Shown: positions 7,727 through 31,831, counted from the stretch's first letter. The stretch: 32,000 bases of DNA from Desulfotalea psychrophila LSv54 (GCF_000025945.1 NC_006138.1:2790001-2822000), one strand, 5' to 3'. Translations and numbers: made by a program. The notes: generated by a model from the letters alone, not told the origin.

Positions 7727-7766
7727 GAGATTTCGCCCTTAAATCAATAAAATAAGGAATTGGTAC

Positions 7767-8696: not shown

Positions 8697-8697
8697 A

Positions 8698-9714: not shown

Positions 9715-9721
9715 TCGTTGT

Positions 9722-9772
9722 GGTGGTCCGTTGCGAAAGGCTACCATTTTGGGTAACAGTCAACGGACCACC
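9722..9772. terminator. Long stem-loop between convergent genes (perfect 12-bp stem), candidate bidirectional terminator
   Basis: GGTGGTCCGTTG (9722-9733) pairs perfectly with CAACGGACCACC (9761-9772). The element starts 8 nt after the GT4 stop. A near-identical hairpin occurs at 13812-13853. There is no clear U-tract. Confidence 0.5.
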
Positions 9773-9782
9773 GATAGCATCC

Positions 9783-10090
9783 TCAACCATTTAAGAATTT
9801 AGCCAAAATACCATCCACAGACGGGGCCGTAGCCCGAGGCAGAACCGAACATCCGCACGGTAGTGCGCACCCCTATGAATAATCGCTCCACAAGAATAGA
9901 CACATTGGGCACATCCCCTTCTCTTTCTTCCGCATTTGGCTCCAACAACAGCTCCCAGATCTGCCCGATGATTTTAGAGGGATCTTCCAGCTCCAGCAGT
10001 ATGGCCCCTAAACAATACCTTCTCATGGGCCCCACCCCATGGGTGAGCATCAGCCACCCTTGTGCGGTTTCAATAAGAGATCCACAATAG
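9783..10090 (-). pseudogene. Decayed 3' fragment (about the last 100 codons) of a GH130-domain gene, paralogous to 13865-15334
   Basis: The translation GWLMLTHGVGPMRRYCLGAILLELEDPSKIIGQIWELLLEPNAEEREGDVPNV matches GWLMLTHGVGPMRRYSLGAVLLDLEDPSQIIGQLREPLLMANAEEREGYVPNV of the intact gene. The frame is then lost, and the terminal ..AKFLNG* is recovered in another frame. Everything upstream of about 10090 is absent. Confidence 0.75.
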
Positions 10091-10117
10091 TATGAACTGC
10101 TTCATGCTGATACCCTG

Positions 10118-11038
10118 CTATGCCGCAGTATAGATTTTCATCGCTTCATTTACTGTTTTTCCATCCACGGTAATGGCATAAATGGCATTGCACATCCTGA
10201 TAGCCTCTTTAAGGGCCTTTTGATGAATATTTCTGCCGGTTGCATTTCCTGAAGCTCCGCTTACATGAATTTGGTCGTAAAGCCTTTCCAGAAAGCCCTC
10301 GACATCATCGCTTGAACCTCCGGCACAAACCACCTTGGTGCGACCTGCCGCCATGACAGCCTCTTTGAATATCTCTTTTGATGCACAGTCTTCCTTCTTG
10401 GGATAATTCACCTTAACAAAATCGCTGCCCAGACATGCGGCCGCACCAGTGGCGCCCGCAATCAGATGAGGATCTTTCTCATCTGCCACTGCTTTACCAC
10501 GGGGATAGACCCATAAGACGGAGATCAACCCATGTTGATGCGCATGGGAAATAATCTGGGCGGCCTGATGCAGCATCTCGGGCTCATACTCGCTTCCCAA
10601 ATAAACCGTATAGCCCACTGCCAAGATATTTAGCCCGCTGTTTTTACGAAAGTCCACTACCTGCTGAACATCCAGCCATTGATTGCTGAAGGGGTCGGAC
10701 TGGGAGGTTTTGACAAGATTGGTTCTAGAATTCAGCTTTACCAGATAAGGGACATCCGCATAGGAACTACCATATCTGGCAATAAGGCCAAGCTGGGTCG
10801 CAAAAACACCAATATTTGCCTGACTTGCAATCCTGAAGAGATGTTCCGGATTACCGTCATCCGGGTGAATCCCTTCTCCATAAAAATCGCTATTTAAATG
10901 CTCGACTTTCTGATCGCCTGCAAATAGCATCAATCGTCCGCAATTTTGAGTTATCGCCAAATAATTGTGGATATAATTTTCTCTTTCTGCCTTTGGAACA
11001 TCCAATGGCACCAAAATATCATCTTCTTTAAGATTCAT
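10118..11038 (-). CDS. Class I aldolase of the DhnA/FbaB family (fructose-bisphosphate aldolase-like)
   Basis: Family motifs LFAGDQKVEHLN, YLVKLNSRTNL, VGYTVYLGSEYE, VLWVYPRG, SDFVKVNYP (candidate Schiff-base Lys), VVCAGGS and TGRNIHQ. The preferred start is MNLKEDD at 11038, with AGGAG 9 nt upstream. The maximal ORF extends to 11104. Confidence 0.75.
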   Translation of the reverse strand: MNLKEDDILVPLDVPKAERENYIHNYLAITQNCGRLMLFAGDQKVEHLNSDFYGEGIHPDDGNPEHLFRIASQANIGVFATQLGLIARYGSSYADVPYLVKLNSRTNLVKTSQSDPFSNQWLDVQQVVDFRKNSGLNILAVGYTVYLGSEYEPEMLHQAAQIISHAHQHGLISVLWVYPRGKAVADEKDPHLIAGATGAAACLGSDFVKVNYPKKEDCASKEIFKEAVMAAGRTKVVCAGGSSDDVEGFLERLYDQIHVSGASGNATGRNIHQKALKEAIRMCNAIYAITVDGKTVNEAMKIYTAA

Positions 11039-11377
11039 AGCTGCATTCTCCTTTTGAATTCTTTCACTCCTTTTCATCGTGGAGTACAAAGTTTCAAACA
11101 TCAATCTCTATCCTCGGGTCATGGTAGCCCCATATTCCAGACACTTCTGCTCAAAACAGGGCATTCCTCATTGATGAATGGCTTTTCCCCACAGTTTGGG
11201 CAAATACAGTCTCCACTCCTTTGCCGATGCACAGAACATCTACTTCGGTCATGTCAAGACCAGCAATTCCCTTGATACCGTACTCCCTGAACATCTCCGG
11301 ATTGAGACACCTCCCCGGACACTCTATTTTTTAAAAAAATCCATTTTTAAACAGTTAAAATCCAGTATTTTTTTCAG

Positions 11378-12634
11378 TTAACTAATCCGGAAAAGGCTCG
11401 AAGAACTCTGGGGCACGGTAGCCTTATAGAACATCGCCGTATGGTCGGCACGGATGGTATAGGGGACGCCGAAGGGAACAAAAAAAGAACTGCCCTGTTG
11501 CAGATTCAGGCTTAACTCGCCGGAGGTGACGACCACATGGGCATCTCTATTAACATCCACAAGGATGAGAATTTCCGCGCTGTGGTCTGACCCATTTTGG
11601 TGAGGTTGCGCCTCTGTCACCTCGATACAGCGCAGCTCGAACTCGGTAACGGGTGTTTTGAATACCCACTCCCGACTGTCTGGAAGTCTTGTAGGATGAA
11701 GGATCTCAGGCTCAGATCCTGCAAAACTCACATTGTTGAGTAGTTCAGGGACGTCAACGTGTTTGGACGTTAGTCCGCCCCGAATCACGTTGTTGGAGCA
11801 GGCCATGATTTCCATACCCGCTCCCTCCAGATAGGTATGCAGCACCCCGGCCGGCAGGTACATGCCTTCACCCGGTTTGAGATGAACCAAATTCAGCAAA
11901 TAAATGGAAAAAATTCCGCGATCCCGATGGCCTTGCTTTGAATATTCCCGGTCCGCCCGAAGGATCCAAAACTGGCGGTCATCACGAATAAAGGCCTTTT
12001 TACGGTCGGCTTCCGTCAGCCGCTTGATCATGGGTTCTAAAACAGCATCCACACGATCCTGGGAAAGATTCATCAAATGCCCATAAAACGACTTGAGACC
12101 GGCGGAGGTCGGTTTGAAATCCAGCTGCAATGACCGAAACTCCGGAATATCGGTAAGAACTTGGGCGATCTGGACCAATGGCCGAAAGCCTCGTAGGCCA
12201 TAAAAATCGGTGAGAGCAACGATCAGCTCCGGTTTGTGGTTGATGTCGCGGTAGTTGCGGTGCCCGGCAGAACGCGGAATACCAGCGGCATTCTCGCGAG
12301 TAAAACCTTCACGGGCACGCGCCTTCGACGGGTGGACTTGGAGGGAAAGTGGTGCGGCAGCCGATAGAACCTTAAAGAGATAGGGCAGCTTCCCTTGAAA
12401 TTTTCGAGTGACCATCGGCCCCAGGACCTCTTCGGCCGATGTTGTGATCACCTCGTTAAGGGCTACCGATCGATCCTTTACCTCAATTTCGGATGGAAGG
12501 TCGGGGTGAGCACCCATCCAGAGCTCCGCAAATGGCCGCCCTTCCGGATTTTTAACGCCCAGAAGATTGGGAATGAAACTTTTATCTCCCCAGACATAGT
12601 GCTGAATACCAGCTTGTAACGGCATAACACCCAT
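11378..12634 (-). CDS. manA: Mannose-6-phosphate isomerase, class I
   Basis: Strong by-eye match to type I PMI. Shared segments include QHYVWG, FAELWMGAHP, GKLPYLFKVLSAAAPLSLQVHPSK, ENAAGIP....RNYRDINHKPELIVALTDF, LKPGEGMYLPAGVLHTYLEG and EIMACSNNVIRGGLTSKHVDVPELL. The start is placed at MGVMPLQAGIQHYVWG (12634) because the 50 codons upstream in the maximal ORF (to 12784) look transposase-derived. Confidence 0.85.
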   Translation of the reverse strand: MGVMPLQAGIQHYVWGDKSFIPNLLGVKNPEGRPFAELWMGAHPDLPSEIEVKDRSVALNEVITTSAEEVLGPMVTRKFQGKLPYLFKVLSAAAPLSLQVHPSKARAREGFTRENAAGIPRSAGHRNYRDINHKPELIVALTDFYGLRGFRPLVQIAQVLTDIPEFRSLQLDFKPTSAGLKSFYGHLMNLSQDRVDAVLEPMIKRLTEADRKKAFIRDDRQFWILRADREYSKQGHRDRGIFSIYLLNLVHLKPGEGMYLPAGVLHTYLEGAGMEIMACSNNVIRGGLTSKHVDVPELLNNVSFAGSEPEILHPTRLPDSREWVFKTPVTEFELRCIEVTEAQPHQNGSDHSAEILILVDVNRDAHVVVTSGELSLNLQQGSSFFVPFGVPYTIRADHTAMFYKATVPQSSSSLFRIS

Positions 12635-12639
12635 GATGG

Positions 12640-13345
12640 CATCAGGTTCCTGACGATTAATTGCCTTCTTGTAAAGAAGATTTAGCATCGTTTTACGGTA
12701 CTCCTTAAATTTCTCCATCAACTTGACATAATTCAATGTTTTTTTGGGCGATATCTGATTGCAAACAAGATCATACCTGTACAAAGCATCTCTCAGATTG
12801 GCACCGGAGTCAAAACGCGTTCGTTTTAAAATATCCGCATGGGCAATTAAAACGCTCTACCATACCATTAGTCTGATTGGTTTGATCAAACGATGTTTGA
12901 TCTGTAAGGCATTGCAGTCTTTATCAAAAATATGTTTTCCTATCGGTTTTCTTTGGCCTGTAGTATGGAACGCGAAACTTTGGGTGAAGAGAGTGCCATA
13001 CAAGGAGCAAAAGACCATCCAGTGAGAGAAGGAGTGTTTTTCGCAACTCAACTACAACTCTTTCGTACTCTTTTGGCAATGTTGTCTGAAGCTTATAAGC
13101 AGTACGAGATCTATCTTCTACGCTATCACGCTCACACCAAATGCGAACGCTTATCTCAACAATCCCAAGCTCAAGAGCAAGGGTAGGCACTGGTTTATCT
13201 AATTTTTGAATTATTGCGAATTCAAGGCCTTGTGGTCGCATTTGCCTATAGCTTATGGCACAAAAATTCCTTGTAAGAAAAAAAGAGATAAACCACTGAT
13301 AAGAGTCTAGCACTCTTTCACCGCGAATGTCTAAGAATTCCTAAC
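12640..13345 (-). mobile_element. Internally deleted IS481-family transposase relic (copy 2), inverted relative to copy 1 and reading toward manA
   Basis: Minus-strand fragments RPQGLEFAIIQKLDKPVPTLALELGI, WCERDSVEDRSRTAYKLQTTL.KEYERVVVELRKTLLLSLDGLLLLVWHSLHPK, then QTNGMVERFN, F.LRCQSERC / LYRYDLVCNQISPKKTLNYVKLMEKFKEYRK. These correspond to the N-terminal and C-terminal parts of an IS481-group transposase, broken by stops and frameshifts and lacking the central catalytic region. Boundaries are approximate. Confidence 0.65.
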
Positions 13346-13481
13346 AATTGTGTTTTTTCCGGCAGATCATGCCATGGGTGTCGACGATTTCCACAGGAAA
13401 CTGAGGACGGCTATAGGGCTTGCCGGGCGGGGATTGTCACGTTCGGTATTACTAGCGATTATCCCGAAACCGGATACGGGT

Positions 13482-13493
13482 GGGGGGGGGGGG
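13482..13493 (+). repeat. Homopolymeric G12 tract in apparently non-coding DNA
   Basis: Direct reading shows ...cggatacgggt gggggggggggg acggat..., with 12 consecutive G from 13482 to 13493. Confidence 0.9.
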
Positions 13494-13670
13494 ACGGATA
13501 TCTCGAAAGGTGCGCTTTTAATAAGACGGTTTGTTGAAAATCCGGACGAAAATGCCACAAAAAAACACGTATTTCCCTGCCCGGAAGGCCTAAGGACAAT
13601 TACCGGCTATTTCCATCGACTACATCATCATAGAGAGGGGTGGTGAGCCTAGCGGCGGACTTCGGCTGAA

Positions 13671-13805
13671 GCTATCCTTACCCTGATAAGGGTCTAATAT
13701 GTTATCCGGCAAAACCATCAACGGGATTATTTGAAGGCAGTTAAATTTATCAATTACAGTAAGGCCGATGTCTGCGTAAGAGAAGACTATATCCTGTCCC
13801 TTGAG
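13671..13805 (+). pseudogene. Fragment of the 5' region of the 744-aa glycosyltransferase gene (paralogous to about 5637-5802)
   Basis: gctatccttaccct...gttatccggcaaaaccatcaacgggattatttgaaggcagttaaatttatcaattacagtaaggccgatgtctgcgtaag aligns by eye with gctatgcttaccct...gttatccgccagaaccatcaacgggattatttaaaagcggttaaatttatcaattacagcgaggccgatgtttgtgtaat (5637 onward). The fragment has an internal deletion of about 35 nt and then joins directly to the hairpin copy. Confidence 0.7.
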
Positions 13806-13811
13806 CGCTAT

Positions 13812-13853
13812 GGTGATCCGTTGCGAAAGGTTACCTTTGGGCAACGGACCACC
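13812..13853. terminator. Second copy of the long stem-loop (12-bp stem with one mismatch) downstream of the GH130-domain gene
   Basis: GGTGATCCGTTG (13812-13823) pairs with CAACGGACCACC (13842-13853). Same sequence family as 9722-9772, with a shorter loop. Confidence 0.5.
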
Positions 13854-13864
13854 GAATAACATCC

Positions 13865-15334
13865 TCAACCATTTAATAATTTAGCCAAAAGATCATCCAC
13901 AGATACCGACGCAAAGCCCGAGGCAGAATCGGACATCCCGTACGGTATAATCAGCATATCGTTATGAATAATCGCTCCGCAGGAATAGACGACATTGGGC
14001 ACATACCCTTCTCTTTCCTCCGCATTTGCCATCAACAACGGCTCCCGGAGTTGACCTATAATTTGGGAGGGATCTTCCAAATCCAGCAGTACAGCCCCCA
14101 AAGAATACCTTCTCATGGGACCCACCCCATGGGTGAGCATCAGCCACCCTTTTGCGGTTTCCATGGGAGAGCCACAATTGCCCAGTTGAATAAATTCCCA
14201 GGGATATTTAGGCTCTTGTATTTTTTGAGCATCATGCCAGACATGAATGTCATCGGAAAACATAAGGTAGTTATTCACCCCATCGTGACGGGAGATCATG
14301 GCATATTGCCCCTTAATTTTTCTCGGGAAAAAGGCCAGATTTTTATTTTGGGTATACTTACCGTGGATCGGGAATACCTGAAAATGATAAAAATCTTTTG
14401 TTTTAAGGCATTTTGGTAAAATACTATATCCGTTATACGCCGTGTAGGTTGCAAAATAGGTAATACTGCCGTCATCATCCATGAATTTGACGAATCGCGC
14501 ATCTTCAATACCGTTGCGTTCATGGGCCGAGACAGGAAAAATAACGCGTTCCGAGATAGCAGTATCCAGTGAAAAACTGATTTCATAATGAGAACTGGCC
14601 AGCCAGTTTATCGAATCGATCACCATTCTTTTACTATAGCTTAGCTCTATGTTTTCGATGCTTGCGGCAATACTTTCCTGCAATTCACGATAGATGAATT
14701 TATCTCCCAGTTTATCCATAATCGATTCGATGATATTTTTGTGAATATCCATCTCGTGCAATTTTTGCAAAAATTGTTCTTTATCATATACATGGCGTTT
14801 TAAGGCTTCCGGCAAATCAACGAATTGCCCGGCCGAGGCGAAGACCAATTCATTATTTCGGGTAATGACACCGCTTCTGAATACGATGGATGAGATATGC
14901 CCCTCCCCGATCGCCCGAAAACTGACAATAACGCGTTTTTGTCCTTCTTCCAGGTTACCCTGATCGGGATCTGCGACGATGGAAGGATTAAAGAAGGCGG
15001 CCGCCTCAATCGCGTATTCCGATGTAAAGTAGGAACCAATCAGTAATTTTCTTTCTAATGACAAGGAATCCGGAGAAACATGAAAATTCGGCTCCAGAAC
15101 GTCGTACAGTCTATCGTAATTGTCCTCAAAAATTTTTGAGATATTGCGGTGCCGTTTTGAAAAATCCTTCAGTACCTGATTGAACGCCAAATCCACTTCC
15201 TGCTTAGATAAATCCAATACTCGCTTAATTATCGTGTTCGCCCTGTCTTTGTGGCCGGGCATATAAAATCTGGCAATGACCCTTGTGGGGTCTGGATAAA
15301 ATTTTTTCGGCAATCTATTTACGGTTAGTGTCAT
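13865..15334 (-). CDS. Two-domain protein: uncharacterised N-terminal domain of about 290 aa plus a C-terminal GH130-like glycosidase/phosphorylase domain
   Basis: The start is set at MTLTVNRLPKKFYPDP, where AAGAGG lies 7 nt upstream of the ATG at 15334. The ORF-track start at 15448 has no such signal. The C-terminal half contains IEDARFVKF, ATYTAYNG, KNLAFFPRKIKGQYAMISR, GWLMLTHGVGP, YSLGAVLLDLEDP and GYVPNVVYSCGA. Confidence 0.8.
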   Translation of the reverse strand: MTLTVNRLPKKFYPDPTRVIARFYMPGHKDRANTIIKRVLDLSKQEVDLAFNQVLKDFSKRHRNISKIFEDNYDRLYDVLEPNFHVSPDSLSLERKLLIGSYFTSEYAIEAAAFFNPSIVADPDQGNLEEGQKRVIVSFRAIGEGHISSIVFRSGVITRNNELVFASAGQFVDLPEALKRHVYDKEQFLQKLHEMDIHKNIIESIMDKLGDKFIYRELQESIAASIENIELSYSKRMVIDSINWLASSHYEISFSLDTAISERVIFPVSAHERNGIEDARFVKFMDDDGSITYFATYTAYNGYSILPKCLKTKDFYHFQVFPIHGKYTQNKNLAFFPRKIKGQYAMISRHDGVNNYLMFSDDIHVWHDAQKIQEPKYPWEFIQLGNCGSPMETAKGWLMLTHGVGPMRRYSLGAVLLDLEDPSQIIGQLREPLLMANAEEREGYVPNVVYSCGAIIHNDMLIIPYGMSDSASGFASVSVDDLLAKLLNG

Positions 15335-15772
15335 TATTACCTCTTTTGGTGATTGATTATAATCGTTCGCCATGGATTTCCACAAAACTGTATGGGCCTT
15401 TCTTATTATAAATTGGAATTTTTTGAGAATCAACAAGCAATTATCCAAAAAACAACTGGCAAAATCAGCAAGAAGGGGCTCGTCATGCTGCTGCCTCCCT
15501 CCCCATGGTTAGTACCAAAGGACATGGTAGAGGAGGTGGGCTGTCGAGTGGTAACCATAGGGGAGGAGGCAAAGACAACGACCATGCAAGCCGTACAGAT
15601 AGTTCAGAACCTTCGGATAACCAAGGTCACAAAGGCAACGGAGTCAACCTACTAAAAATTATTCTGAAAGACGGCGAACTTTTCTCTTTAAAAGATGTTC
15701 GTACAAGAAGTTGAGTTGGATCGTCTCAATATATCCAGAGCGGCGGACAAGGTTCTAGATCGTCCTCTTTAA

Positions 15773-21521: not shown

Positions 21522-21645
21522 CGAGCCCGGAAATGGCCGGGGCGGATTCGCCCCGGGGATCTCCAAGCCACACCCAACCTATCATCCCCAGACCCGCCAA
21601 GACGCCTAATACGAAAAACAGCTAAACCACTAAATCTACACCTTT

Positions 21646-21674
21646 TTCATGGACAGAAGAAACCTTCCTGTGAT
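21646..21674 (+). promoter_or_regulatory. Candidate sigma70-type promoter of autotransporter gene 1
   Basis: TTCATG-17 nt-TGTGAT. The same block (TRTGATACCAT after a T-run) is conserved upstream of all three paralogues, about 90-100 nt before each ATG. Confidence 0.3.
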
Positions 21675-21760
21675 ACCATCTTTACGACAGGCAGCTCCAT
21701 CTATTTCCATCAAGACCGGGTGCTCTTTCGCCTGCCTCAAACCAGCGATAAGGAGAAAGT

Positions 21761-24700
21761 ATGAAGGATGTAGAGAGACGAGGACGGAGAAAGGTCTATG
21801 CCACCAAGAGTGCCCTGGCGGGCCTGCTGGCCCTGAGCATGGGAGCAACCAACGCCTGGGCAGGAGTTACCATCGGAGAGGGAGGAGCGGGGAGATGGGA
21901 TGAGCCATTTTATTATGCCCTCGCCACCGCCCCGGCGACAACGAGAACTGCCATCACTCATGGCAAGCCAGGAGCCCCTAATATAAAAAAGATGGCTGGT
22001 TCCGAGCCATTTCTCACCGGGATAAGAGTTGAGAGTGGTAGCCTCGACAATGAGGGAGAGATCAGGCTCTACTTCAGGAATGAAAAGGGATCTATCAGCC
22101 TCATTGGCATTATAGGCGACACCAGCCGGAACGGGGCAGACGTTGAGCTGGGGGCCGAGGGCGGCACGGCCACCTCCGCCACCGTCAAAGCCAAATCCTT
22201 CGCCTACACCTACGCCTGCGGCATACAGGGTGAGGTGGGGGACAATGAGGGCAAGATAAACATCACCGCTCAGAGCGGCACCGCCGAAGCCAACGCCGCC
22301 AAAGCCAAAACCTCCGCCTACGCCCACGCCCACGCCCACGCCTACGGAATAAGGGGTAGGGTAGGAGACAATATTGGTCACATAGAGCTCAAAGCCCTAG
22401 GCGGCAAGGCCACCGCCAAGACTACCGGCACCGCCTACGCCAATGCCTCCGCCTACGCCTACGGCATAGTGAGTAATGTGACAAACAATAGTGGGGAGAT
22501 GGAGCTCAGGGCTCAGGGCGGCACCACCAACGCCACCGCCCTCGCCAAAGCCTCCGCCTACGCCCACGCCCGTGCCCACGGAATAATGCATGGGGTGGGA
22601 AGCAATGAGGGCAAAATGACCATCACCGCTCAAGGCGGTGAGGCCGAAGCTACCGCCGCCGAAACCAACGGTCGTGTCGGCGCCACCGCCGGCGCCATCG
22701 GCATATCAGGTACGGTGGGAAACAATGAGGGCAAGATGACCATCAGAGCTACGGGCGGCAAGACCAACGGTCACGGCTACAGCTCCTCCTACGCCTACGC
22801 CGCCGGCATAAATGGTAAGGTAGGAGACAATATTGGTCATATGGAAATCAGGGCTGAGGGCGGCACGGCCACCGCCAAAGCTACCGGCACCGCCGACGCC
22901 CTGGCCTACGCCCTATCCTCCGCCCACGGCATAAAGGGTAATGTGGCAAACAATAATGGGGAAATGGAGATCAGGGCTGAGGGCGGCAAGGCCACCGCCA
23001 AGACTACCGCCAACGCGACCACCCTCGCCCTCGCCAACACCAACGCCACAGCCTACGGCATAGAGGGTCAGGTGGGAAGCAATAAGGGCAAGATGACCAT
23101 CATTGCTCAGAGCGGTAAGGCCGAAGCCACCGCCGCCAAAGCCGAAGCCTATGCCTACGCCCACGCCTGCGGCATAAAGGGTGGGGTGGGAAGCAGTAGT
23201 GGTAATATTACTGTTAGGGCAACGGGTGGTAGCGCCATTGCTACCTCCACTGCGACTGCCATTGCTAATGCCAAAGCCTATGGTATGCAGAGTTCGGTTG
23301 CAGATTTAGTAAATACGGGGGCCATAGAGGTGGTGGCACGGGCGGGACGATATTCCACCGACGGTGGAACAACCTATCACAGTGATTCCGCTACCGCCTA
23401 TGGGGTCTATTTTAATGGATTGGAGGAAAGCTCTCTTGATTCCCGTGCTCTTATTTCAGTGAGCGCCCTGCCGGCACAGGATGAGGCGGGTAAGGCAATA
23501 GCCTTAGGCACTGACAAGACTCTCCAGGCCCATCAGGTCTATAGCGGGGGAGACCTAACCATAAAGGGCTATGCCATGAAGTTTAATAACCAGGAGCAGG
23601 TTACTGCTGATTATAAAGGGACTATTGGCGTTGCCGATGGCAAAAGAGTCACCTTTGCCCCCGATGCACAAGTCTATGCCTTCATCGATAATGATTTTGG
23701 CACGGTGCCCAATTACAGCATACCTATGTTGGTTGAGGGGGAAACGCGTAACTACAATCAATTCTCCGTGGCCCAGCTTGTCGTCAGTAGCCCGGACTAT
23801 AGTATATCTTTGCTTGACGGCAATGGCGGAACACTTCAGCAACTGGCCATCGCCTACGTCCCCAAAGTTTCCACCCCCCTGGTCACGGCCCAGGTCAACC
23901 AAAAGATGCTGACCAGTGGCACCACCATTGTAGAAAAGAGCTCTTTATCGCCTATGCTTGCCATGATGGAGAGGAGTAATCCTCGCGCTTCGGCCTACGA
24001 CGGTGTTCTTCTGGCCAGCACATCACCTATCCTGACTGTCCCTGATATGGAGATTTTACCCCAAAAAAGGGGCTGGGCCTTTGCCATGCCCTATTATAGT
24101 AATGTGAGTAATAACGCCTCGCCCATGGGCTATGATGCCGATATTTATGGAGCCACAGCTGGATATAACCACTGGATAGATTCTGATCTCATCCTCGGTT
24201 TTCATGCTGGTTATGGTTCCGGTGATATTAATTATACGGGCAAGGGCTATGAGCAGAAGAAGGAGAATCTTAAGGCTGGATCCCTCGGGGTGCAAAGCCT
24301 GTATCGTTTTGCTGATGACTGGTTGTTACAGAGCATAGCCTCCTTTTATTATAGCAGTAACGATTATAGCGATAATAACCCGCTCAACCGGGAGCAGGGC
24401 GACTACCATGGCTACGGGGTGAATGCCAAGCTTGACCTTGACTATGTCTTCAGTTTTATCAATAACCGCCTGATACCCAGTGTGGGGCTGCGCTATCTCT
24501 GGCAGCACGTCGATAGCTATACCGCTTATAATCTGGACAACGCCGATGTGAACTACGGTGATATGGATGAGAATCAGCTCTATGCCAGCCTGGGCCTTGA
24601 TTGGTACGGTGATTACCAGACGGAATCAAATTGGCAGATAGTGCCCAGTCTCGGCCTGGGCATCGAGCAGGCCCTCACCGATAACGAATTTGGCAACAGC

Positions 24701-24880
24701 ATGGGAGTGGGAAGTGTCATCATTCCGGTGACAAACTCAATGGATAAGACCTCTGTCTCCGCCCGGGCCTCCATTGAGTTTGTTAAGGATTCCTATGCGC
24801 TGAGCGCTGGATATGCTGGAGCCTATTCGAGTGACACCAAGAACAGCTCCTTCTATCTGCAGATGAAGTATTTCTTTTAA
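21761..24880 (+). CDS. Type Va autotransporter paralogue 1 (1039 aa): signal peptide, repeat passenger of about 12 units, conserved linker, C-terminal beta-barrel
   Basis: AAGGAGAA Shine-Dalgarno motif 6 nt before the ATG. Signal peptide MKDVERRGRRKVYATKSALAGLLALSMGATNAWA. Tandem units of the type GI.G.VG.N.G.M.I.A.GG.A.A....AYA.A.AY. The last 270 or so aa alternate hydrophobic and polar residues, are rich in Y/G/S/N/D, and end in FYLQMKYFF, an outer-membrane beta-signal with terminal Phe. Confidence 0.85.
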   Translation: MKDVERRGRRKVYATKSALAGLLALSMGATNAWAGVTIGEGGAGRWDEPFYYALATAPATTRTAITHGKPGAPNIKKMAGSEPFLTGIRVESGSLDNEGEIRLYFRNEKGSISLIGIIGDTSRNGADVELGAEGGTATSATVKAKSFAYTYACGIQGEVGDNEGKINITAQSGTAEANAAKAKTSAYAHAHAHAYGIRGRVGDNIGHIELKALGGKATAKTTGTAYANASAYAYGIVSNVTNNSGEMELRAQGGTTNATALAKASAYAHARAHGIMHGVGSNEGKMTITAQGGEAEATAAETNGRVGATAGAIGISGTVGNNEGKMTIRATGGKTNGHGYSSSYAYAAGINGKVGDNIGHMEIRAEGGTATAKATGTADALAYALSSAHGIKGNVANNNGEMEIRAEGGKATAKTTANATTLALANTNATAYGIEGQVGSNKGKMTIIAQSGKAEATAAKAEAYAYAHACGIKGGVGSSSGNITVRATGGSAIATSTATAIANAKAYGMQSSVADLVNTGAIEVVARAGRYSTDGGTTYHSDSATAYGVYFNGLEESSLDSRALISVSALPAQDEAGKAIALGTDKTLQAHQVYSGGDLTIKGYAMKFNNQEQVTADYKGTIGVADGKRVTFAPDAQVYAFIDNDFGTVPNYSIPMLVEGETRNYNQFSVAQLVVSSPDYSISLLDGNGGTLQQLAIAYVPKVSTPLVTAQVNQKMLTSGTTIVEKSSLSPMLAMMERSNPRASAYDGVLLASTSPILTVPDMEILPQKRGWAFAMPYYSNVSNNASPMGYDADIYGATAGYNHWIDSDLILGFHAGYGSGDINYTGKGYEQKKENLKAGSLGVQSLYRFADDWLLQSIASFYYSSNDYSDNNPLNREQGDYHGYGVNAKLDLDYVFSFINNRLIPSVGLRYLWQHVDSYTAYNLDNADVNYGDMDENQLYASLGLDWYGDYQTESNWQIVPSLGLGIEQALTDNEFGNSMGVGSVIIPVTNSMDKTSVSARASIEFVKDSYALSAGYAGAYSSDTKNSSFYLQMKYFF
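22019..23400 (+). repeat. In-frame tandem coding repeats (period about 105-130 nt) in the passenger of paralogue 1
   Basis: Successive units read from the translation include GIQGEVGDNEGKINITAQSGTAEANAAKAKTSAYAHAHAHAY and GIRGRVGDNIGHIELKALGGKATAKTTGTAYANASAYAY. They continue with GIVSNVTNNSGEMELRAQGGTTNATALAKASAYAHARAH and further units. Confidence 0.85.
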
Positions 24881-24883
24881 AAA

Positions 24884-24911
24884 ATGCCCGGGAAAGATTC
24901 TCCCCGGGCAT
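24884..24911 (+). terminator. Stem-loop directly after autotransporter gene 1
   Basis: ATGCCCGGG (24884-24892) pairs with CCCGGGCAT (24903-24911), starting 4 nt after the stop. A weaker equivalent (CCGGGG/CCCCGG) follows gene 2 at about 27294-27316. Confidence 0.45.
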
Positions 24912-24998
24912 CTCCAAGCCACACCCAACCTGTCATCCCCAGACCCGCCAAGACTCCTGATGCGAGAAACAGCTAAGCCATTAGATCTCCACATTTTT

Positions 24999-25026
24999 TT
25001 GTAGACAACAGAAACCTTCCTATGAT
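24999..25026 (+). promoter_or_regulatory. Candidate sigma70-type promoter of autotransporter gene 2
   Basis: TTGTAG-16 nt-TATGAT, at the position equivalent to the blocks upstream of genes 1 and 3. Confidence 0.3.
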
Positions 25027-25120
25027 ACCATCTTTACGACAGGCAGCGCCATCGCTCCATCTATTTCCATCAAGACCGGCTGCTCTTTCGCCTGCCCCCA
25101 AGCCACCGACGAGGAGAACT

Positions 25121-27286
25121 ATGAAGGATGCAGAGAAGCGAGACGGCAGAAAAGTCTATGCCACCAGGAGTGCCCTGGCGGGCCTGCTCGCCCTGAGCAT
25201 GGGAGCAACCAACGCCTGGGCGGGTGTCACTTTCGCCGAGAAAGGAGGAGACGGGACAGATAAAAATCCATTTTACTATGCCCTCGCCACCGGCACAGCG
25301 ATAAATACGACCCCAATCAAGCATGGCACACCAGCAGGCCCCATGACAAGGAATGGCGGTGATATTTTCATTTACGGAATAAAGATCACGGGTGGCAACC
25401 TCGACAATAAGGGAGAGATCAGGATCCACTCCAAAAATGACACGGGTTCGACCAATCTCCTTGCTATTAAGAGCACTGGTGATGCCAGTAGCACAATTCA
25501 GAACGAGGCGAACATTGAACTGGAGGCCAAGGGCGGTTCCTCCACCTCCTCCTCCAGCGCCTACACCTTCGGCATAATGGGTGAGATAACAAGGAATGAG
25601 GGCAATATGACCATCAGATCTACGGGCGGCACGCTCACCGCCGCCTCCGCTGAGGCCTCTGCCGAAGCCGGCGCTGCCGGCATAGGCAGCTATGGTGATC
25701 TCTACAATCAGGGGCGGATAGAGGTGGTGGCCCAGGCAGGCCGATACTCCGCCGACGGTGGGGCAACCTATCAGAGTGATTCCGCTACGGCCTTGGGTAT
25801 TCTTTTTGCAAGGGAAGGAACCCTTGATTCCCGTGCTCCCATCGCTGTTCAGGCCAGAGGGGCAACGAATACAGCGGACAGTGAGAGATCCATTTTCAGC
25901 GGCACAGAGGAACTGAAAAGTGGAAAATTCCTTCGGGCCTATCAAGTGCTCACCTATAGTGCATTGACAATCAAAGGTTACTCCATGGTCTTTAACAACC
26001 AGGAGGAGGTGGACGAGCACTATCGGGGAGCCATCGGCACAATAGGCGACGGTACGGCAACATTTGCCCCCGATGCCGTCCTCTATGTCTTCACCGACAA
26101 TAACTTTGCCAAGGCAACAACTTACAAAATCCCCACCCTGGTGGAAGATGCGGCCATCAGCGATCAATTTACCTCGGCCCAACTGGCCCTGACCAGTCCC
26201 GACTACAGGGCCAACCTGGTGGATGGAGATGGCAAAAAACTCCAGCAACTGGCCATCGCCTACGCCCCCGAGGTTTCCACTCCCCTGGTCTCAGCACAGG
26301 TCAATCAAAAGATACTGGCCAGTGGCACCACCATTGTAAGGGCGAGCTCGTTATCGCCTATGCTTGCCAAGATGGAGAGGAGTAATCCTCGCGCTTCGGC
26401 CTACGATGGTGTTCTTCTTGCCAGCACATCACCTGTCCTGGCTGTCCCTGATATGGAGATTTTACCCCAAAAAAGGGGCTGGGCCTTTGCCATGCCCTAT
26501 TATAGTAATGTGAGTAACAACGCCTCGCCCATGGGCTATGATGCCGATATTTATGGGGCCACGGCTGGATATAACCACTGGATAGACTCTGATCTCATCC
26601 TCGGTTTTCATGCTGGTTATGGTTCCGGTGATATTAATTATACGGGCAAGGGCTATGAGCAGAAGAAGGAGAATCTTAAGGCTGGATCCCTCGGGGTGCA
26701 AAGCCTGTATCGTTTTGCTGATGACTGGTTGTTACAGAGCATAGCCTCCTTTTATTATAGCAGTAACGATTATAGCGATAATAACCCGCTCAACCGGGAG
26801 CAGGGCGACTACCATGGCTACGGGGTGAATGCCAATCTTGACCTTGACTATGTCTTTAGTTTTACCAATAATCGCCTGGTACCCAGTGTAGGCCTGCGCT
26901 ATCTCTGGCAGCACGTCGATAGCTATACCGCTTATAATCTGGACAACGCCGATGTGAACTACGGTGATATGGATGAGAATCAGCTCTATGCCAACCTGGG
27001 CCTTGATTGGTACGGTGATTATCGCACGGAATCGAATTGGCAGATAGTGCCAAGTTTGGGCTTGGGAGTTGAGCAGGCACTCACCGATAACGAATTTGGC
27101 AACAGCATGGGAGTGGGCAGTATCATCATTCCGGTGACAAACTCAATGGATAAGACCTCTGTCTCCGCCCGGGCCTCCATTGAGTTTGTTAAGGATTCCT
27201 ATGCGCTGAGCGCTGGATATGCTGGAGCCTATTCGAGTGACACCAAGAACAGCTCCTTCTATCTGCAGATGAAGTATTTCTTTTAA
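25121..27286 (+). CDS. Type Va autotransporter paralogue 2 (721 aa): same architecture with only about 4 repeat units
   Basis: The start is set at the conserved MKDAEKRDGRKVYATRSALAGLLALSMGATNAWA, with GAGGAGAA upstream. The passenger is short (GIMGEITRNEGNMTIRSTGGTLTAASAEASAEAGAA ...). The linker and barrel are nearly identical to paralogues 1 and 3 and end in FYLQMKYFF. Confidence 0.85.
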   Translation: MKDAEKRDGRKVYATRSALAGLLALSMGATNAWAGVTFAEKGGDGTDKNPFYYALATGTAINTTPIKHGTPAGPMTRNGGDIFIYGIKITGGNLDNKGEIRIHSKNDTGSTNLLAIKSTGDASSTIQNEANIELEAKGGSSTSSSSAYTFGIMGEITRNEGNMTIRSTGGTLTAASAEASAEAGAAGIGSYGDLYNQGRIEVVAQAGRYSADGGATYQSDSATALGILFAREGTLDSRAPIAVQARGATNTADSERSIFSGTEELKSGKFLRAYQVLTYSALTIKGYSMVFNNQEEVDEHYRGAIGTIGDGTATFAPDAVLYVFTDNNFAKATTYKIPTLVEDAAISDQFTSAQLALTSPDYRANLVDGDGKKLQQLAIAYAPEVSTPLVSAQVNQKILASGTTIVRASSLSPMLAKMERSNPRASAYDGVLLASTSPVLAVPDMEILPQKRGWAFAMPYYSNVSNNASPMGYDADIYGATAGYNHWIDSDLILGFHAGYGSGDINYTGKGYEQKKENLKAGSLGVQSLYRFADDWLLQSIASFYYSSNDYSDNNPLNREQGDYHGYGVNANLDLDYVFSFTNNRLVPSVGLRYLWQHVDSYTAYNLDNADVNYGDMDENQLYANLGLDWYGDYRTESNWQIVPSLGLGVEQALTDNEFGNSMGVGSIIIPVTNSMDKTSVSARASIEFVKDSYALSAGYAGAYSSDTKNSSFYLQMKYFF

Positions 27287-27405
27287 AAAATGCCCGGGGA
27301 TCCTCCACGCCCCGGCCATCGCCCCTCCCCCTGCCTGCCATCCCAGGACCGCCAGGAACCCTTATGCCCAGGAAAAGCAACTAACTCACCAAGTCTTCAG
27401 ATTTT

Positions 27406-27433
27406 TTTTAGACAACAGCCCTCCCCCTGTGAT
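27406..27433 (+). promoter_or_regulatory. Candidate sigma70-type promoter of autotransporter gene 3
   Basis: TTTTAG-16 nt-TGTGAT in the conserved block. The match to the -35 consensus is weak. Confidence 0.25.
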
Positions 27434-27526
27434 ACCATTTTCATGACAGGCAGCACCATCATTCCATCTATTTCCATCAAGACCGGCTGCTCTTTCGCCT
27501 GCCGCAAACCAGCGATAAGGAGAACT

Positions 27527-30500
27527 ATGAAGGATGTAGAGAGACGAGGACGGAGAAAGGTCTATGCCGCCAAGAGTGCCCTGGCGGGCCTGCTCGCCCT
27601 GAGCATGGGAACAACGAACGTCTGGGCAGGAGTTACCATCGGAGAGGGAGGATCGGGATACTGGAACAATCCATATTTCTATGCCCTCGCCAACGGCGAG
27701 ACGGCGACAAATACGACTCCAATCAAACATGGCGAGTCAACAGGCCCCATCATAGATAAACTGATGGCCGACAAGGGCTATCTCAGCGGGATAATGGTTG
27801 GGAGTGGCAGCCTCAACAATGAGGGAGAGATCCACCTCTACTTCAAGAATGAAACGGGGGATGTCCGCCTCTATGGCATTGAAGGCGACACCAGCCGGAA
27901 CGGGGCGGACATTGAGCTGAGGGCCGAGGTCGGCACGGCCACCTCCACCCCCGCTAAAGCCTCCGCCTTCGCCTACGGCATACAGGGTGAGGTGGGAAGC
28001 AATGAGGGCAAGATGATCATCAAAGTTGAGGGCGGCACGGCCAGCTCCGCCTCCACCTACGCCCACGCCTACGCCTACGCCTACGCCTACGCCTACGGCA
28101 TAAGGGGTGAGGTAGGAGACAATATTGGTCATATGACGATCAAGGCTGAGGGCGGCAAGGTCACCTCCAACGCTACCGGCACCGCCTACGCCACCGCCTA
28201 CGCCAAAGCCTACGGCATATGGGGTAATGTGACAAACAATAGTGGGGCGATGGAGATCAGAGCTCAGGGCAGCAAGGCCACCTCCAAGGCTACCGACAAC
28301 GCCTTCGCAGACACCAGCGCCGTCGCCTACGCCATACGGGGTACGGTGGGAAGCAATGAGGGCAAGATGAGCATCACCGCTCAGGGCGGTGAGGACGAAG
28401 CCACCAGCACCGCCCAGGCCTACGCCCAGGCCTACGACCAGGCCTACGGTATATGGAGTGGAGTAAAAAGCAATATTGGGAAGATGGGAATCAAGGCTCA
28501 GGGCGGCACGGCCACCTCCAACGCTACCAACATCGCCTACGCCTACACCCCCGCCTCTGCCTACGGCATAAAGGGTGGGGTGGGAAACAATAGTGGGGAG
28601 ATGGAGATCAGTGCTCAAGGCGGCACGGCCACCTCCACCACCGTCACCGCCAAAGCCAAATCCTTCGCCCACGCCTACGCCAAGACCTACGGCATAGAGG
28701 GTGAGGTAGGAGACAATAGGGGAAAGATGGAGATCGGGGCTGAGGGAGGCACGGCCTCCGCCTACTCCTGGACCGACGCCGAAGCCAACGCCATCGTCTC
28801 CGCCCACGGCATAGAGGGCAAGGTGGGAAAAAATAGTGGGGAGATGAAGATCAGGGCTCAAGGTGGCAGGGCCACCGCCGAAGCCACCGTTAAAGCCTTG
28901 GCCACAGCCAGCGCCGACGCCTTGGGCATAAGGGGTCAGGTTGGGAAAAATAGTAAGGAGATGAAGGTCAAGGCCACGGGCGGCACCGCCAAGACCACCA
29001 CCAATGCCACCACCGCTAGTGCCTCCGCCAACGCCTACGCCCGCGCCTCTGCTTCCGCCCACGGCATATTTGGTGGGATGGGAGGCAATAGTGGTAATAT
29101 GACCATCAGATCCCTGGGCGGCAAGGCCACCGCCTACGATACCGCCTTCGCCAACGCCATGGTCGACGCCATCGCCTACGGCATACGAGGGCAGGTGAGA
29201 AGCAATGAGGGCAAGATGGAGATCGAAACCCAGGGCGGCACCGCCGAGGCCACCGCCGCCAAAGCCACAACCTCTGCCAACGCTTGGGCCTACGGCATAG
29301 AGGGTGAGGTGGGAGACAATGATGGCAAGCTGGAGATCAGAGCTCAGAGCGGTGAGGCCAACGCCAACGCTACTGGCACCGGCACCGCCGACGCCTGGGC
29401 CGACGCCTACGGCATAAGGGGTACAGTGGGAAGCAATGGCGGCAAGATGACTATCACTGCTCAGAGTGACACCGCCACCGCCACTACCGCTGCCAAAGCC
29501 AAAACCTCCGCCTACGCCCAGGCCTACGGCATAGAGGGCAGGATAGGAGACAATATTGGTCATATGGTGATCAAGGCTCAGGGCGGCAAGGCCACCTCCA
29601 AGACTACCGGCACCGCCTGGGCCTGGGCCTGGGCCGACGCCTATGGCATAGATGGTGGGGTGGGAAGCAATGAGGGTAAGATGACCATCAGGGCTCAGGG
29701 CGGTGAGGCCGAAGCCACCGCCGCCGACGCCAATGCCTACACCATCGCCGCCGCCCACGGCATAGAGGGCAAAGTGGAAAAAAATAGTGGGGAGATGGAG
29801 ATCAGGGCTCAGGGTGGCACCACCAACGCCACCACCACCACCAACGCCAAAGCCTCCGCCGACGCCAGCGCCCGGGCCTTCGGCATAGAGGGTCAGGTGG
29901 GAAGCAATGAGGGCAATATGAACATCGGGGCTCAGGGCGGTGAGGCCGAAGCCACTGCTGCTGAAACCACCGCCTACGGCAACGCCGACGCCCGGGCCAA
30001 GGCCTACGCCACCGCCTCCGCCTACGGCATAATTGGTGGGGTGGGAAGCAATGAGGGCAAGATGACCATCACGGCCACAGGCGGCAAGGCCAACGGTCAC
30101 AGCTACATCTCCTCCTACGCCTTCGCCTCCGGCATAGAGGGTGATGTGGGAAAAAATAGTGGGGAAATGGAGATCAGGGCTGAGGGCGGCACGGCCACCA
30201 CCACCGGCACCGGCACCACCAAGGCCTATGCAAGGGCCATTGGCATAGGCAGCTCTGCTGATCTCTACAATGAGGGGCAGCTAGAGGTGATGGCCCGGGC
30301 GGGACGATATTCCACCGATGGCGGAACAACGTATCAGAGTGATTCTGCCAGGGCCGTGGGTATTTCTTTTTCAGGGGAGGCAGAACTTGACTCCCGTGCT
30401 CTTATTTCAGTGAGCGCCCTGCCGGCACAGGATGAGGCGGGTAAGGCAATAGCCTTAGGCACTGGCAAGACTCTCCACGCCTATCAAGTCTATAGCGGGG

Positions 30501-31831
30501 AAGACTTAAGCATAAAGGGCTATGCCATGAAGTTTAATAATCAGGCGCAGGTTACTGCTGATTATAAGGGAACTATTGGCGTTGCCGAGGGCAAAAGAGT
30601 CACCTTTGCCCCCGATGCACAAGTCTATGCCTTCACCGATAATGATTTTGGCAAGGTGCCCAATTACAGCATACCTATGTTGGTTGAGGGGGAGACTCGC
30701 AGATATAATCAATTCTCCGCGGCCCAGCTTGTCGTCAGTAGCCCGGACTATAGTATATCTTTGCTTGACAGTAATGGCGGAACACTTCAAAGGCTGGCCA
30801 TAAAGTATACTCCCGAGGTTTCCACTCCTCTGGTCTCAGCACAGGTCAATCAAAAGATGCTGGCCAGTGGCACCACCATTGTAACGAACAACTCTTTATC
30901 GCCTATGCTTGCCATGATGGACAGGAGCAATCCTCAAACTTCGGCCTACGACGGTGTTCTTCTTGCCAGCACATCACCTGTCCTGGCTGTCCCTGATATG
31001 GAGATTTTACCCCAAAAAAGGGGCTGGGCCTTTGCCATGCCCTATTATAGTAATGTGAGTAACAATGCCTCGCCCATGGGCTATGATGCCGATATTTATG
31101 GGGCCACGGCTGGATATAACCACTGGATAGACTCTGATCTCATCCTTGGTTTTCATGCTGGTTATGGTTCCGGTGATATTAATTATACGGGCAAGGGCTA
31201 TGAGCAGAAGAAGGAGAATCTTAAGGCTGGATCCCTCGGGGTGCAAAGCCTGTATCGTTTTGCTGATGACTGGTTGTTACAGAGCATAGCCTCCTTTTAT
31301 TATAGCAGTAACGATTATAGCGATAATAACCCGCTCAACCGGGAGCAGGGCGACTACCATGGCTACGGGGTGAATGCCAATCTTGACCTTGACTATGTCT
31401 TTAGTTTTACCAATAATCGTCTGGTACCCAGTGTAGGCCTGCGCTATCTCTGGCAGCACGTCGATAGCTATACCGCTTATAATCTGGACAACGCCGACAT
31501 TCACTACGGTGATATGGATGAAAATCAGCTCTATGCCAACCTGGGTCTTGATTGGTACGGTGATTACCAAACGGAATCAAATTGGCAGATAGTGCCCAGT
31601 CTCGGCCTGGGCATCGAGCAGGCCCTCACCGATAACAAATTTGGCAACAGCATGGGAGTGGGCAGTATCATCATTCCGGTGACAAACTCAATGGATAAGA
31701 CCTCTGTCTCCGCCCGGGCCTCCATTGAGTTTGTTAAGGATTCCTATGCGCTGAGCGCTGGATATGCTGGAGCCTATTCGAATGACACCAAGAACAGCTC
31801 CTTCTATCTGCAGATGAAGTATTTCTTTTAA
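27527..31831 (+). CDS. Type Va autotransporter paralogue 3 (1434 aa): same architecture with about 23 repeat units
   Basis: The start is set at the conserved MKDVERRGRRKVYAAKSALAGLLALSMGTTNVWA, with AAGGAGAA at 27517-27524. It has a long run of GI.G.VG.N.G.M.I.A.GG units, and its linker and barrel are nearly identical to the other two copies. It ends in FYLQMKYFF. Confidence 0.85.
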   Translation: MKDVERRGRRKVYAAKSALAGLLALSMGTTNVWAGVTIGEGGSGYWNNPYFYALANGETATNTTPIKHGESTGPIIDKLMADKGYLSGIMVGSGSLNNEGEIHLYFKNETGDVRLYGIEGDTSRNGADIELRAEVGTATSTPAKASAFAYGIQGEVGSNEGKMIIKVEGGTASSASTYAHAYAYAYAYAYGIRGEVGDNIGHMTIKAEGGKVTSNATGTAYATAYAKAYGIWGNVTNNSGAMEIRAQGSKATSKATDNAFADTSAVAYAIRGTVGSNEGKMSITAQGGEDEATSTAQAYAQAYDQAYGIWSGVKSNIGKMGIKAQGGTATSNATNIAYAYTPASAYGIKGGVGNNSGEMEISAQGGTATSTTVTAKAKSFAHAYAKTYGIEGEVGDNRGKMEIGAEGGTASAYSWTDAEANAIVSAHGIEGKVGKNSGEMKIRAQGGRATAEATVKALATASADALGIRGQVGKNSKEMKVKATGGTAKTTTNATTASASANAYARASASAHGIFGGMGGNSGNMTIRSLGGKATAYDTAFANAMVDAIAYGIRGQVRSNEGKMEIETQGGTAEATAAKATTSANAWAYGIEGEVGDNDGKLEIRAQSGEANANATGTGTADAWADAYGIRGTVGSNGGKMTITAQSDTATATTAAKAKTSAYAQAYGIEGRIGDNIGHMVIKAQGGKATSKTTGTAWAWAWADAYGIDGGVGSNEGKMTIRAQGGEAEATAADANAYTIAAAHGIEGKVEKNSGEMEIRAQGGTTNATTTTNAKASADASARAFGIEGQVGSNEGNMNIGAQGGEAEATAAETTAYGNADARAKAYATASAYGIIGGVGSNEGKMTITATGGKANGHSYISSYAFASGIEGDVGKNSGEMEIRAEGGTATTTGTGTTKAYARAIGIGSSADLYNEGQLEVMARAGRYSTDGGTTYQSDSARAVGISFSGEAELDSRALISVSALPAQDEAGKAIALGTGKTLHAYQVYSGEDLSIKGYAMKFNNQAQVTADYKGTIGVAEGKRVTFAPDAQVYAFTDNDFGKVPNYSIPMLVEGETRRYNQFSAAQLVVSSPDYSISLLDSNGGTLQRLAIKYTPEVSTPLVSAQVNQKMLASGTTIVTNNSLSPMLAMMDRSNPQTSAYDGVLLASTSPVLAVPDMEILPQKRGWAFAMPYYSNVSNNASPMGYDADIYGATAGYNHWIDSDLILGFHAGYGSGDINYTGKGYEQKKENLKAGSLGVQSLYRFADDWLLQSIASFYYSSNDYSDNNPLNREQGDYHGYGVNANLDLDYVFSFTNNRLVPSVGLRYLWQHVDSYTAYNLDNADIHYGDMDENQLYANLGLDWYGDYQTESNWQIVPSLGLGIEQALTDNKFGNSMGVGSIIIPVTNSMDKTSVSARASIEFVKDSYALSAGYAGAYSNDTKNSSFYLQMKYFF
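27788..30360 (+). repeat. In-frame tandem coding repeats in the passenger of paralogue 3
   Basis: About 23 units counted by eye, from GIMVGSGSLNNEGEIHLYF to GIGSSADLYNEGQLEVMARAGRYSTDGGTTYQSDSARAV. Unit length is 35-48 aa. Confidence 0.85.
28058..28096 (+). repeat. In-frame hexanucleotide microsatellite (GCCTAC)5 encoding YAHAYAYAYAYAY
   Basis: Five perfect GCCTAC units at 28067-28096, preceded by tacgcccac. Shorter analogues are (GCCCAC)3 at 22322-22339 (AHAHAH) and (GCCTGG)3 at 29615-29632 (AWAWAW). Confidence 0.9.

Follow-up and report, generated by a model that had tools for sequence, protein, structure and literature searches.

Repeat-rich autotransporters and the DP2469-DP2471 locus

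Several autotransporters carry passengers that are built from repeated elements. In pertactin, Ag43, UpaB and AIDA-I, the rungs of the passenger are about 19-25 amino acids (aa) long and consist of three strands. Chlamydial Pmp proteins are paralogous autotransporters, often encoded in tandem clusters, and short Gly/Asn motifs run along their predicted β-helix. In rickettsial rOmpA (Sca0), the length of the passenger is set by the number of tandem repeats, which are 72-75 aa long and nearly identical. Here, we describe three adjacent genes of Desulfotalea psychrophila LSv54, DP2469, DP2470 and DP2471 (A, B and C below), which lie in a stretch of 32,000 nucleotides (nt) (GCF_000025945.1, NC_006138.1:2790001-2822000; called the window, with positions counted from its first nucleotide). 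Their products are paralogous classical (type Va) autotransporters with a signal peptide, a passenger, a predicted helix and a C-terminal β-barrel. We consider it probable, though well short of certain, that the three passengers form solenoid-like rods of n x 39 residues, that the triplet arose by duplication with gene conversion of the barrels, and that the proteins are likely to be surface rods or adhesins.

Three tandem genes encode classical autotransporters

A scan of the window for open reading frames (ORFs) revealed three consecutive ORFs on the + strand (21761-24880, 25022-27286 and 27290-31831), which confirms the head-to-tail arrangement proposed in a first-pass annotation of this DNA. 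Exact protein matches identified them as DP2469, DP2470 and DP2471 of D. psychrophila LSv54, and the protein of gene A is identical to CAG37198.1/WP_011189710.1. The genes are as follows.

21761-24880, + strand: gene A (DP2469), 1039 aa; type Va autotransporter with 10 clear repeat units, based on the ORF, its translation, the exact database match and PF03797
25121-27286, + strand: gene B (DP2470), 721 aa from MKD; autotransporter with one clear unit and 2-3 degenerate units
27527-31831, + strand: gene C (DP2471), 1434 aa from MKD; autotransporter with 20 clear units

In all three genes, the MKD codon follows the ribosome-binding site (RBS) AAGGAGAA, and alignment showed that the DNA 5' of MKD in B and C shares homology with the non-coding stretch in front of A. 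Therefore, MKD at 25121 (B) and at 27527 (C) are the real starts. RefSeq starts DP2470 at the MKD codon (721 aa), whereas GenBank starts it 33 codons earlier (754 aa). DP2471 in GenBank has 1513 aa from 27290, which is 79 codons too early, and this 1513-aa form persists. Both GenBank starts run through the conserved non-coding leader (25022-25120 and 27290-27526). The public names of the three proteins are 'hypothetical protein' or 'autotransporter family protein'; the assignment as autotransporters is correct, yet it is already in public annotation.

The three proteins begin with a signal peptide of the common pattern MKD[VA]E[RK]R..KVYA.[KR]SALAGLLALSMG.TN.WA. Read by eye, it is a predicted Sec signal peptide: the n-region is basic (RRGRRK), the core ALAGLLALSMGA is hydrophobic, and A-W-A precedes Gly35.

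21761-21862, + strand: signal peptide of A (aa 1-34, MKDVERRGRRKVYATKSALAGLLALSMGATNAWA, cut before G), read directly from the sequence
25121-25222, + strand: signal peptide of B, the stretch equivalent to that of A
27527-27628, + strand: signal peptide of C, the stretch equivalent to that of A

At the other end of the proteins, a Pfam scan found PF03797 in the last ~250 aa of all three (E 3e-31 to 9e-31; 108-110 bits vs a cut-off of 26).

24074-24814, + strand: β-barrel of A (PF03797 at aa 772-1018, E 7e-31)
31025-31765, + strand: β-barrel of C (PF03797 match)

An AlphaFold2 (AF2) model of full-length B had a predicted local distance difference test (pLDDT) score of 83.8 and a predicted template modelling score (pTM) of 0.74; in it, a β-rich passenger is followed by a helix (387-434) and a barrel (453-720). 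In a Foldseek search, the barrel of this model matched those of EstA, AaaA, EspP, NalP, AIDA-I, Hbp and BrkA (E 1e-14 to 1e-9, target template modelling (TM) scores 0.66-0.81). All three proteins terminate in an aromatic residue (...KYFF). The Pfam matches (E ~1e-31) together with the likeness of the modelled barrel to solved autotransporter barrels bear out the earlier expectation of PF03797 on the C-terminal part, and the shared leader (about 240 nt by our alignment), the shared signal peptide and the shared FYLQMKYFF end noted at first pass were all present in the three genes, as judged from the translations and the upstream alignment.

The passengers contain a 39-residue repeat unit

Between the signal peptide and the barrel, the Gly/Ala/Thr-rich passengers carry a repeat unit with the consensus G-I-x-G-x-V-G-x-N-x-G-x-M-x-I-x-A-x-G-G-x-A-x-A, which is followed by a Thr/Ala spacer and then by alternating Ala-x. 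The unit is 35-48 aa long, with a mode of 39. A strict pattern found 9, 1 and 19 units in A, B and C, respectively, spaced 35-48 aa and mostly 39 aa apart. A hidden Markov model (HMM) built from the units found by this pattern detected 10 clear units in A (aa 116-509), one in B (aa 151-188) and 20 in C (aa 117-906); the clear units in the arrays have i-Evalues of 1e-15 to 1e-21, and each protein has in addition one to three weak, degenerate units that flank them. Tandem Repeats Finder (TRF) independently found periods of 117, 234 and 351 nt. Thus, the motif and the length of 35-48 aa agree with their first description. The copy numbers given at that time (about 12, 4 and 23) are close if the weak flanking units are counted, but the solid units number 10, 1 and 20.

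22106-23287, + strand: repeat array of A (10 units, aa 116-509; unit HMM), with an AF2 pLDDT of ~97 and five strands per unit
25571-25684, + strand: lone clear unit of B (aa 151-188; unit HMM i-Evalue 8e-14)
27875-30244, + strand: repeat array of C (20 units, aa 117-906; unit HMM and TRF periods)

Per-position statistics revealed that G1, I2, G4, V6, G7, N9, G11, M13, I15, A17, G19, G20, A22 and A24 are nearly invariant. After A24, Ala occupies every second position up to the penultimate residue of the unit, and Tyr or His stands directly before the next G-I. Of the variable positions, those in the first half are charged, 21-27 carry Thr, Lys or Glu, and those of the last strand hold aromatic or polar residues. 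At positions 21, 23, 25 and 27, Thr is the commonest residue, yet it occurs in only 11-13 of 26 units and is mixed with Lys, Glu and Asn. This alternation of conserved and variable positions fits stacked β-strands with a packed, conserved core and a variable free surface.

The arrays also differ from the rest of the window in composition, with a GC content of 0.60-0.63 vs ~0.45-0.49 elsewhere and an AT skew of +0.33. Antisense ORFs of up to 787 aa lie within them (27737-30100, 25070-26248, 21737-22381 and 23555-23902, all on the - strand). These look like by-products of a codon periodicity rich in GCC, GGC and ACC rather than genes.

The passenger is predicted to be a β-solenoid-like rod

An AF2 model of the passenger of A (aa 36-705) had a mean pLDDT of 88.1 and a pTM of 0.89, with ~97 in the array and five β-strands per unit. 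Beyond the array, the model contains a further domain.

23288-23875, + strand: non-repetitive C-terminal passenger domain of A (aa 510-705), conserved in the family; β-rich in the AF2 model, pLDDT 65-98

No Pfam match was found for this domain. The repeat itself had no Pfam or NCBIfam match at E <= 1, including the Pmp, pertactin, AIDA and PATR models, and Pfam and NCBIfam scans found no catalytic or other Pfam domain in the passengers; matches to DUF5979, KOW5 and Oxysterol_BP were dismissed as chance. A single-sequence search of the passenger against PDB sequences gave no match. When the unit profile was searched against the PDB, only designed 'Cake' propellers were found, through a repeated 8-residue VGSNDGHL that scores about 1 bit per copy, and we rejected them as chance. 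The β-propeller reading of the 39-aa unit prompted by this match was also rejected, because the unit numbers (1, 10 and 20 here, 3-24 across the family) and the β-helix neighbours described below misfit a closed propeller. Together, the Pfam, NCBIfam, PDB sequence and PDB profile searches uphold the earlier proposal that the repeat lies outside known passenger families.

In Foldseek, the passenger had weak neighbours (E 0.2-8, TM 0.1-0.2), namely pertactin, Ag43, UpaB, EspP, Pet, PL6 lyases and tailspikes, all of which are β-helices. The best of them in the PDB were pertactin (E 0.21, TM 0.19) and Ag43 (E 0.37, TM 0.13). Foldseek is weak on solenoids, so the passenger may still belong to the general β-helix class. 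The high-confidence AF2 prediction supports a regular β-solenoid, as had been suggested at first pass. We conclude that the passenger is probably a β-solenoid-like rod, for which Foldseek gave no superposition on solved passengers. From the sequence only, we infer that the 39-aa unit might be either one wide coil or two coils of ~19-20 residues. The unbroken even-position Ala ladder at 22-38, set against I2/G4/V6 and M13/I15/A17, would fit a two-coil unit whose core residues alternate between large and small. Rods of 10 and 20 units would be about 5 and 10 nm long with one coil per unit, or about 10 and 19 nm long with two.

The anchor is conserved while the exposed parts diverge

The first-pass annotation held that the three genes differ almost only in copy number on an identical anchor. 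This was overstated. The N-terminal 150 aa of A, B and C are 56-67% identical, and in the DNA of the passenger after the repeats, A and C are 74-96% identical, whereas B is ~50-70% identical to either. Only the last ~750 nt are 88-100% identical among the three genes; here identical runs reach 233-272 nt, and the encoded barrels are 97-100% identical. The repeat units have a mean DNA identity of 64% and a maximum of 86%, so the array is not slippage-prone. Their order is rearranged between A and C: the unit at A314 has its best match at C834, and that at A235 at C745.

In the last 1000 nt, 61 variable sites are split 24/18/17 among the three possible groupings of the genes. Neighbouring variable sites share the same pattern in 35 of 60 cases, vs 18.5 +/- 3.5 in shuffled data, and none of 100000 shuffles reached 35. 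The barrels are therefore nearly identical because of mosaic gene conversion. Such a pattern is what gene conversion leaves when it acts repeatedly on the anchor only and the exposed parts go separate ways. This suggests long-term maintenance of three distinct forms and counts against fast switching of length. By these comparisons, B is an old, divergent paralogue and not a recent deletion derivative.

The repeat is found in a rare family of autotransporters

Among 1.84 billion representative proteins, a profile built from 26 units matched 37 clusters at E <= 1e-3, 20 of them at E <= 1e-10; nearly all of these clusters are autotransporters with the same barrel type. A search with the full-length protein found 47 relatives, and those with names come from Phycisphaerales/Phycisphaerae, Sedimentisphaera-related metagenome-assembled genomes (MAGs), Pseudovibrio and an uncultured delta proteobacterium MAG. 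Among 73 collected proteins, ~55 share the barrel subtype and an N-x-G-x-I-x-V motif, with a median spacing of 35-44 aa and 3-24 units. In the homologues from Desulfobulbia-like MAGs, Pseudovibrio and Phycisphaerae, the period is 36-43 aa and the barrel is of the same type. By sequence criteria, the repeat defines a small environmental family of autotransporters that is coherent and rare and whose members are uncharacterised.

The closest relatives of DP2469-DP2471 are 46-47% identical and are encoded in single-copy loci, which suggests that, within the available data, only LSv54 has the tandem triplet. A scan of the genome collection with one alignment (A3) found one locus, and a metagenome scan for relatives found none. 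As for the surroundings of the family, one of the closest metagenomic relatives (L002) adjoins a transposase helix-turn-helix (HTH) domain (3193-3492), and another (L004) has genes for a phage-type integrase, an HTH antitoxin and a RelE-like toxin next to it (3587-5388). These mobile-element neighbours hint that the family may move horizontally. The Pfam entry PF27417.1 appears in the precomputed annotation of a Pseudovibrio-like homologue (P0008, 1829 aa) and may be a recent model that overlaps with this family; it is not recorded for the D. psychrophila proteins.

Proposed origin and mode of action

Judging from the mode of action of the family, Sec would export each protein by means of its 34-residue signal peptide, the β-barrel assembly machinery (BAM) would insert the C-terminal β-barrel into the outer membrane, and the barrel, with the preceding helix in its lumen, would present the passenger on the cell surface. 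According to sequence and prediction, the passenger would comprise a poorly ordered N-terminal tip, a rod of n units (n = 10, 1 and 20) and, ahead of the helix, a conserved domain of ~190 residues that lacks repeats. The array may have originated by duplication of a segment composed of a hairpin, the 240-nt leader and the gene, running from the hairpin to the stop codon. The three copies would then have diverged in the tip, the repeats and the distal passenger, with gene conversion keeping the barrels nearly identical, and each gene probably has its own promoter. Our best guess for the role, by analogy, is that the proteins act as surface rods or adhesins without enzymatic activity, in three lengths on the same type of anchor. 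That they might give adhesins of graded reach, as suggested at first pass, is a conjecture.

The leaders on which this origin is modelled are the following.

21537-21760, + strand: leader of A, with a GC hairpin (21537-21556), a promoter-like TGGACA-18-TACCAT (21650-21679) and the RBS AAGGAGAA
24884-25120, + strand: leader of B, with a hairpin (24884-24911) and a promoter-like site (25002-25031)
27290-27526, + strand: leader of C, with a hairpin (27290-27319) and a promoter-like site (27409-27438); annotated as coding in GenBank

Alignment, a promoter scan and hairpin folding revealed that the leader of ~240 nt holds the RBS and a promoter-like T[AG]GACA-18-TACCAT, which has a TG upstream and lies about 80-110 nt before each ATG. 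It was also observed that the leader can fold (21675-21775, 25027-25135 and 27434-27541) so that CUCUUUCG pairs with the AAGGAG RBS and UCUAUUUCCAUC pairs with the start-codon region. Because the three copies are nearly identical, this fold shows no covariation, and it is at most a candidate for an element of translational control. A search of the whole window against Rfam gave no match.

Some points weigh against the proposal of surface rods on converted anchors. Searched by Foldseek with the model of the A passenger, neither the PDB nor the viral library yielded a match at E <= 1e-3. AlphaFold tends to favour solenoids for repeats, and the passenger solenoid is a prediction. The Pfam scan detected no autochaperone or pertactin-type domain in A, B or C. 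Conservation of the promoter-like site is not independent evidence, because the consensus matches sit in duplicated DNA. The role as adhesins is an analogy with other repeat-rich autotransporters, and a literature search turned up no paper on DP2469-71 or on D. psychrophila autotransporters, nor any data on expression, localisation or binding.

Alternative explanations

The locus had also been proposed to serve surface or antigenic variation. In such a system, recombination at the near-identical 3' ends, leaders or units would often resize or reshuffle the passengers, with evasion of phage or grazers as the benefit. Several of the observations above could be explained in this way, since long identical runs (233-272 nt) and barrels that are 97-100% identical flank variable passengers, the mosaic of conversion tracts is clear, and units are rearranged between A and C (A314/C834 and A235/C745). 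The units, however, are old and diverged (mean 64%, maximum 86% DNA identity), unlike those of slippage-prone contingency loci, and B differs from A and C throughout the tip and the distal passenger, as would not be the case for a recent deletion product. Moreover, related loci are single-copy (one genome of D. psychrophila was compared), and no invertase, recombinase or silent cassettes were seen in the window. We therefore found no evidence for variation of length or antigen, and we regard this explanation as rather improbable. B also raises another question, because its passenger is the most divergent of the three and its single clear unit has degenerate neighbours; only the long genes might be functional, and B (DP2470) might be a decaying remnant whose 3' half is kept intact-looking by gene conversion. 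This is unlikely: B has no frameshifts or stops, its ORF, signal peptide, RBS, leader and promoter-like site are intact in the same layout as in A and C, and the full-length AF2 model is well folded (pLDDT 83.8).

D. psychrophila is a psychrophile from Arctic sediment, and one may ask whether the passengers bind ice or minerals through a flat face with a Thr ladder (positions 21/23/25/27) and an aromatic ladder (Y/H/W before G-I), as β-solenoid ice-binding proteins and adhesins do. The psychrophilic host, the regularity of the predicted solenoid, the preference for Thr at these four positions and the aromatics at alternate positions of the last strand would agree with this. We nevertheless give the idea hardly any credence. 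The Thr positions are only ~40-50% Thr and are often Lys or Glu, unlike clean ice-binding faces, and no sequence or structural match to any ice-binding protein appeared in the PDB sequence, PDB profile and Foldseek searches. Furthermore, the GGTAT and AYAYG[IL] motifs are equally conserved in the homologues from Pseudovibrio and Phycisphaerae, lineages not known to be especially associated with cold habitats. One can also imagine a passenger class of new structure, with a single wide coil or a two-coil unit and an I/V/M-over-Ala core ladder, whose flat Thr and aromatic face would bind ice, mineral or polysaccharide; the three fixed rod lengths would then provide graded attachment in permanently cold sediment. 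Taken as a whole, this combination seems very doubtful to us. We thus return to three paralogous autotransporters with solenoid-like rods of different length, duplicated in tandem and converted at the barrel, as the probable reading of the locus.

Significance and other genes in the window

The locus provides a rare passenger family that has no curated model or structural template, and the repeat could for this reason be added to domain databases. One genome with 1, 10 and 20 units on nearly identical anchors is also material for studying how passenger length relates to secretion and surface function. In addition, it is a clean example of gene conversion limited to the membrane anchor, with the exposed parts diverging. 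The general view of the autotransporter mechanism is left unchanged, and the locus is mainly a lead for curation and structural biology.

Other genes were noted in the window. At 5492-15448, there is a mannose-related cluster that contains two GT4-type glycosyltransferases (one of them fused to a long C-terminal domain), two GH130 β-mannoside phosphorylase-like genes, a type I phosphomannose isomerase and a DeoC/LacD aldolase. This cluster may be a pathway for a mannosylated compatible solute or mannan. On the - strand at 1504-3679, a 151-aa ORF whose product has a twin-arginine-like signal TRRKFIQYSTVLLAG shares 50 nt with the start of a 589-aa ORF, which has a GNHDHF metallophosphoesterase-like motif and no Pfam match. 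The two may be one exported phosphoesterase gene that is split by a frameshift or a wrong start.

Comparison with known systems

DP2469-DP2471 share with pertactin (1DAB), Ag43 (4KH3/7KOH), UpaB (6BEA) and AIDA-I the order of signal peptide, β-rich repetitive passenger, helix and PF03797 barrel, and passengers of the pertactin/Ag43/UpaB type are, with other right-handed β-helices, the sole (weak) structural neighbours of the passenger model. Unlike these passengers, the repeat of DP2469-DP2471 matches no Pertactin (PF03212), AIDA (PF16168) or PATR (PF12951) model at E <= 1, its period is 39 aa with five predicted strands, and no pertactin-type autochaperone was detected. The V-G-x-N and G-G-x-A of the unit have a similar flavour to the GGA[ILV]/FxxN motifs of Pmp proteins; however, there is no Chlam_PMP or ChlamPMP_M match at E <= 1, and the motif spacing, the Ala-x strand and the host lineages differ. 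As in rOmpA, the passenger length of an autotransporter is set here by the number of tandem units, although the units of DP2469-DP2471 are 39 aa long, diverged and unrelated in sequence to those of rOmpA, and the length series runs across three paralogues, not across strains. Compared with β-solenoid ice-binding proteins, which present an uncharged Thr array (TxT/TxN), Thr is found here in 11-13 of 26 units and is mixed with Lys, Glu and Asn. The closest likeness is to uncharacterised autotransporters of Phycisphaerae, Pseudovibrio and Desulfobulbia-like bacteria (P0003-P0036 and P0048-P0063). They are only 25-49% identical to DP2469-DP2471, have 3-24 units, and lie in single-copy loci in all cases inspected. 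Nevertheless, their repeat, AYG[IL]-x(6)-N-x-G-x-I-x-V-x-A-x-GG-x-A, is of the same type and recurs every 36-43 aa, they share the pre-helix domain and the barrel subtype, and they are true members of the family.

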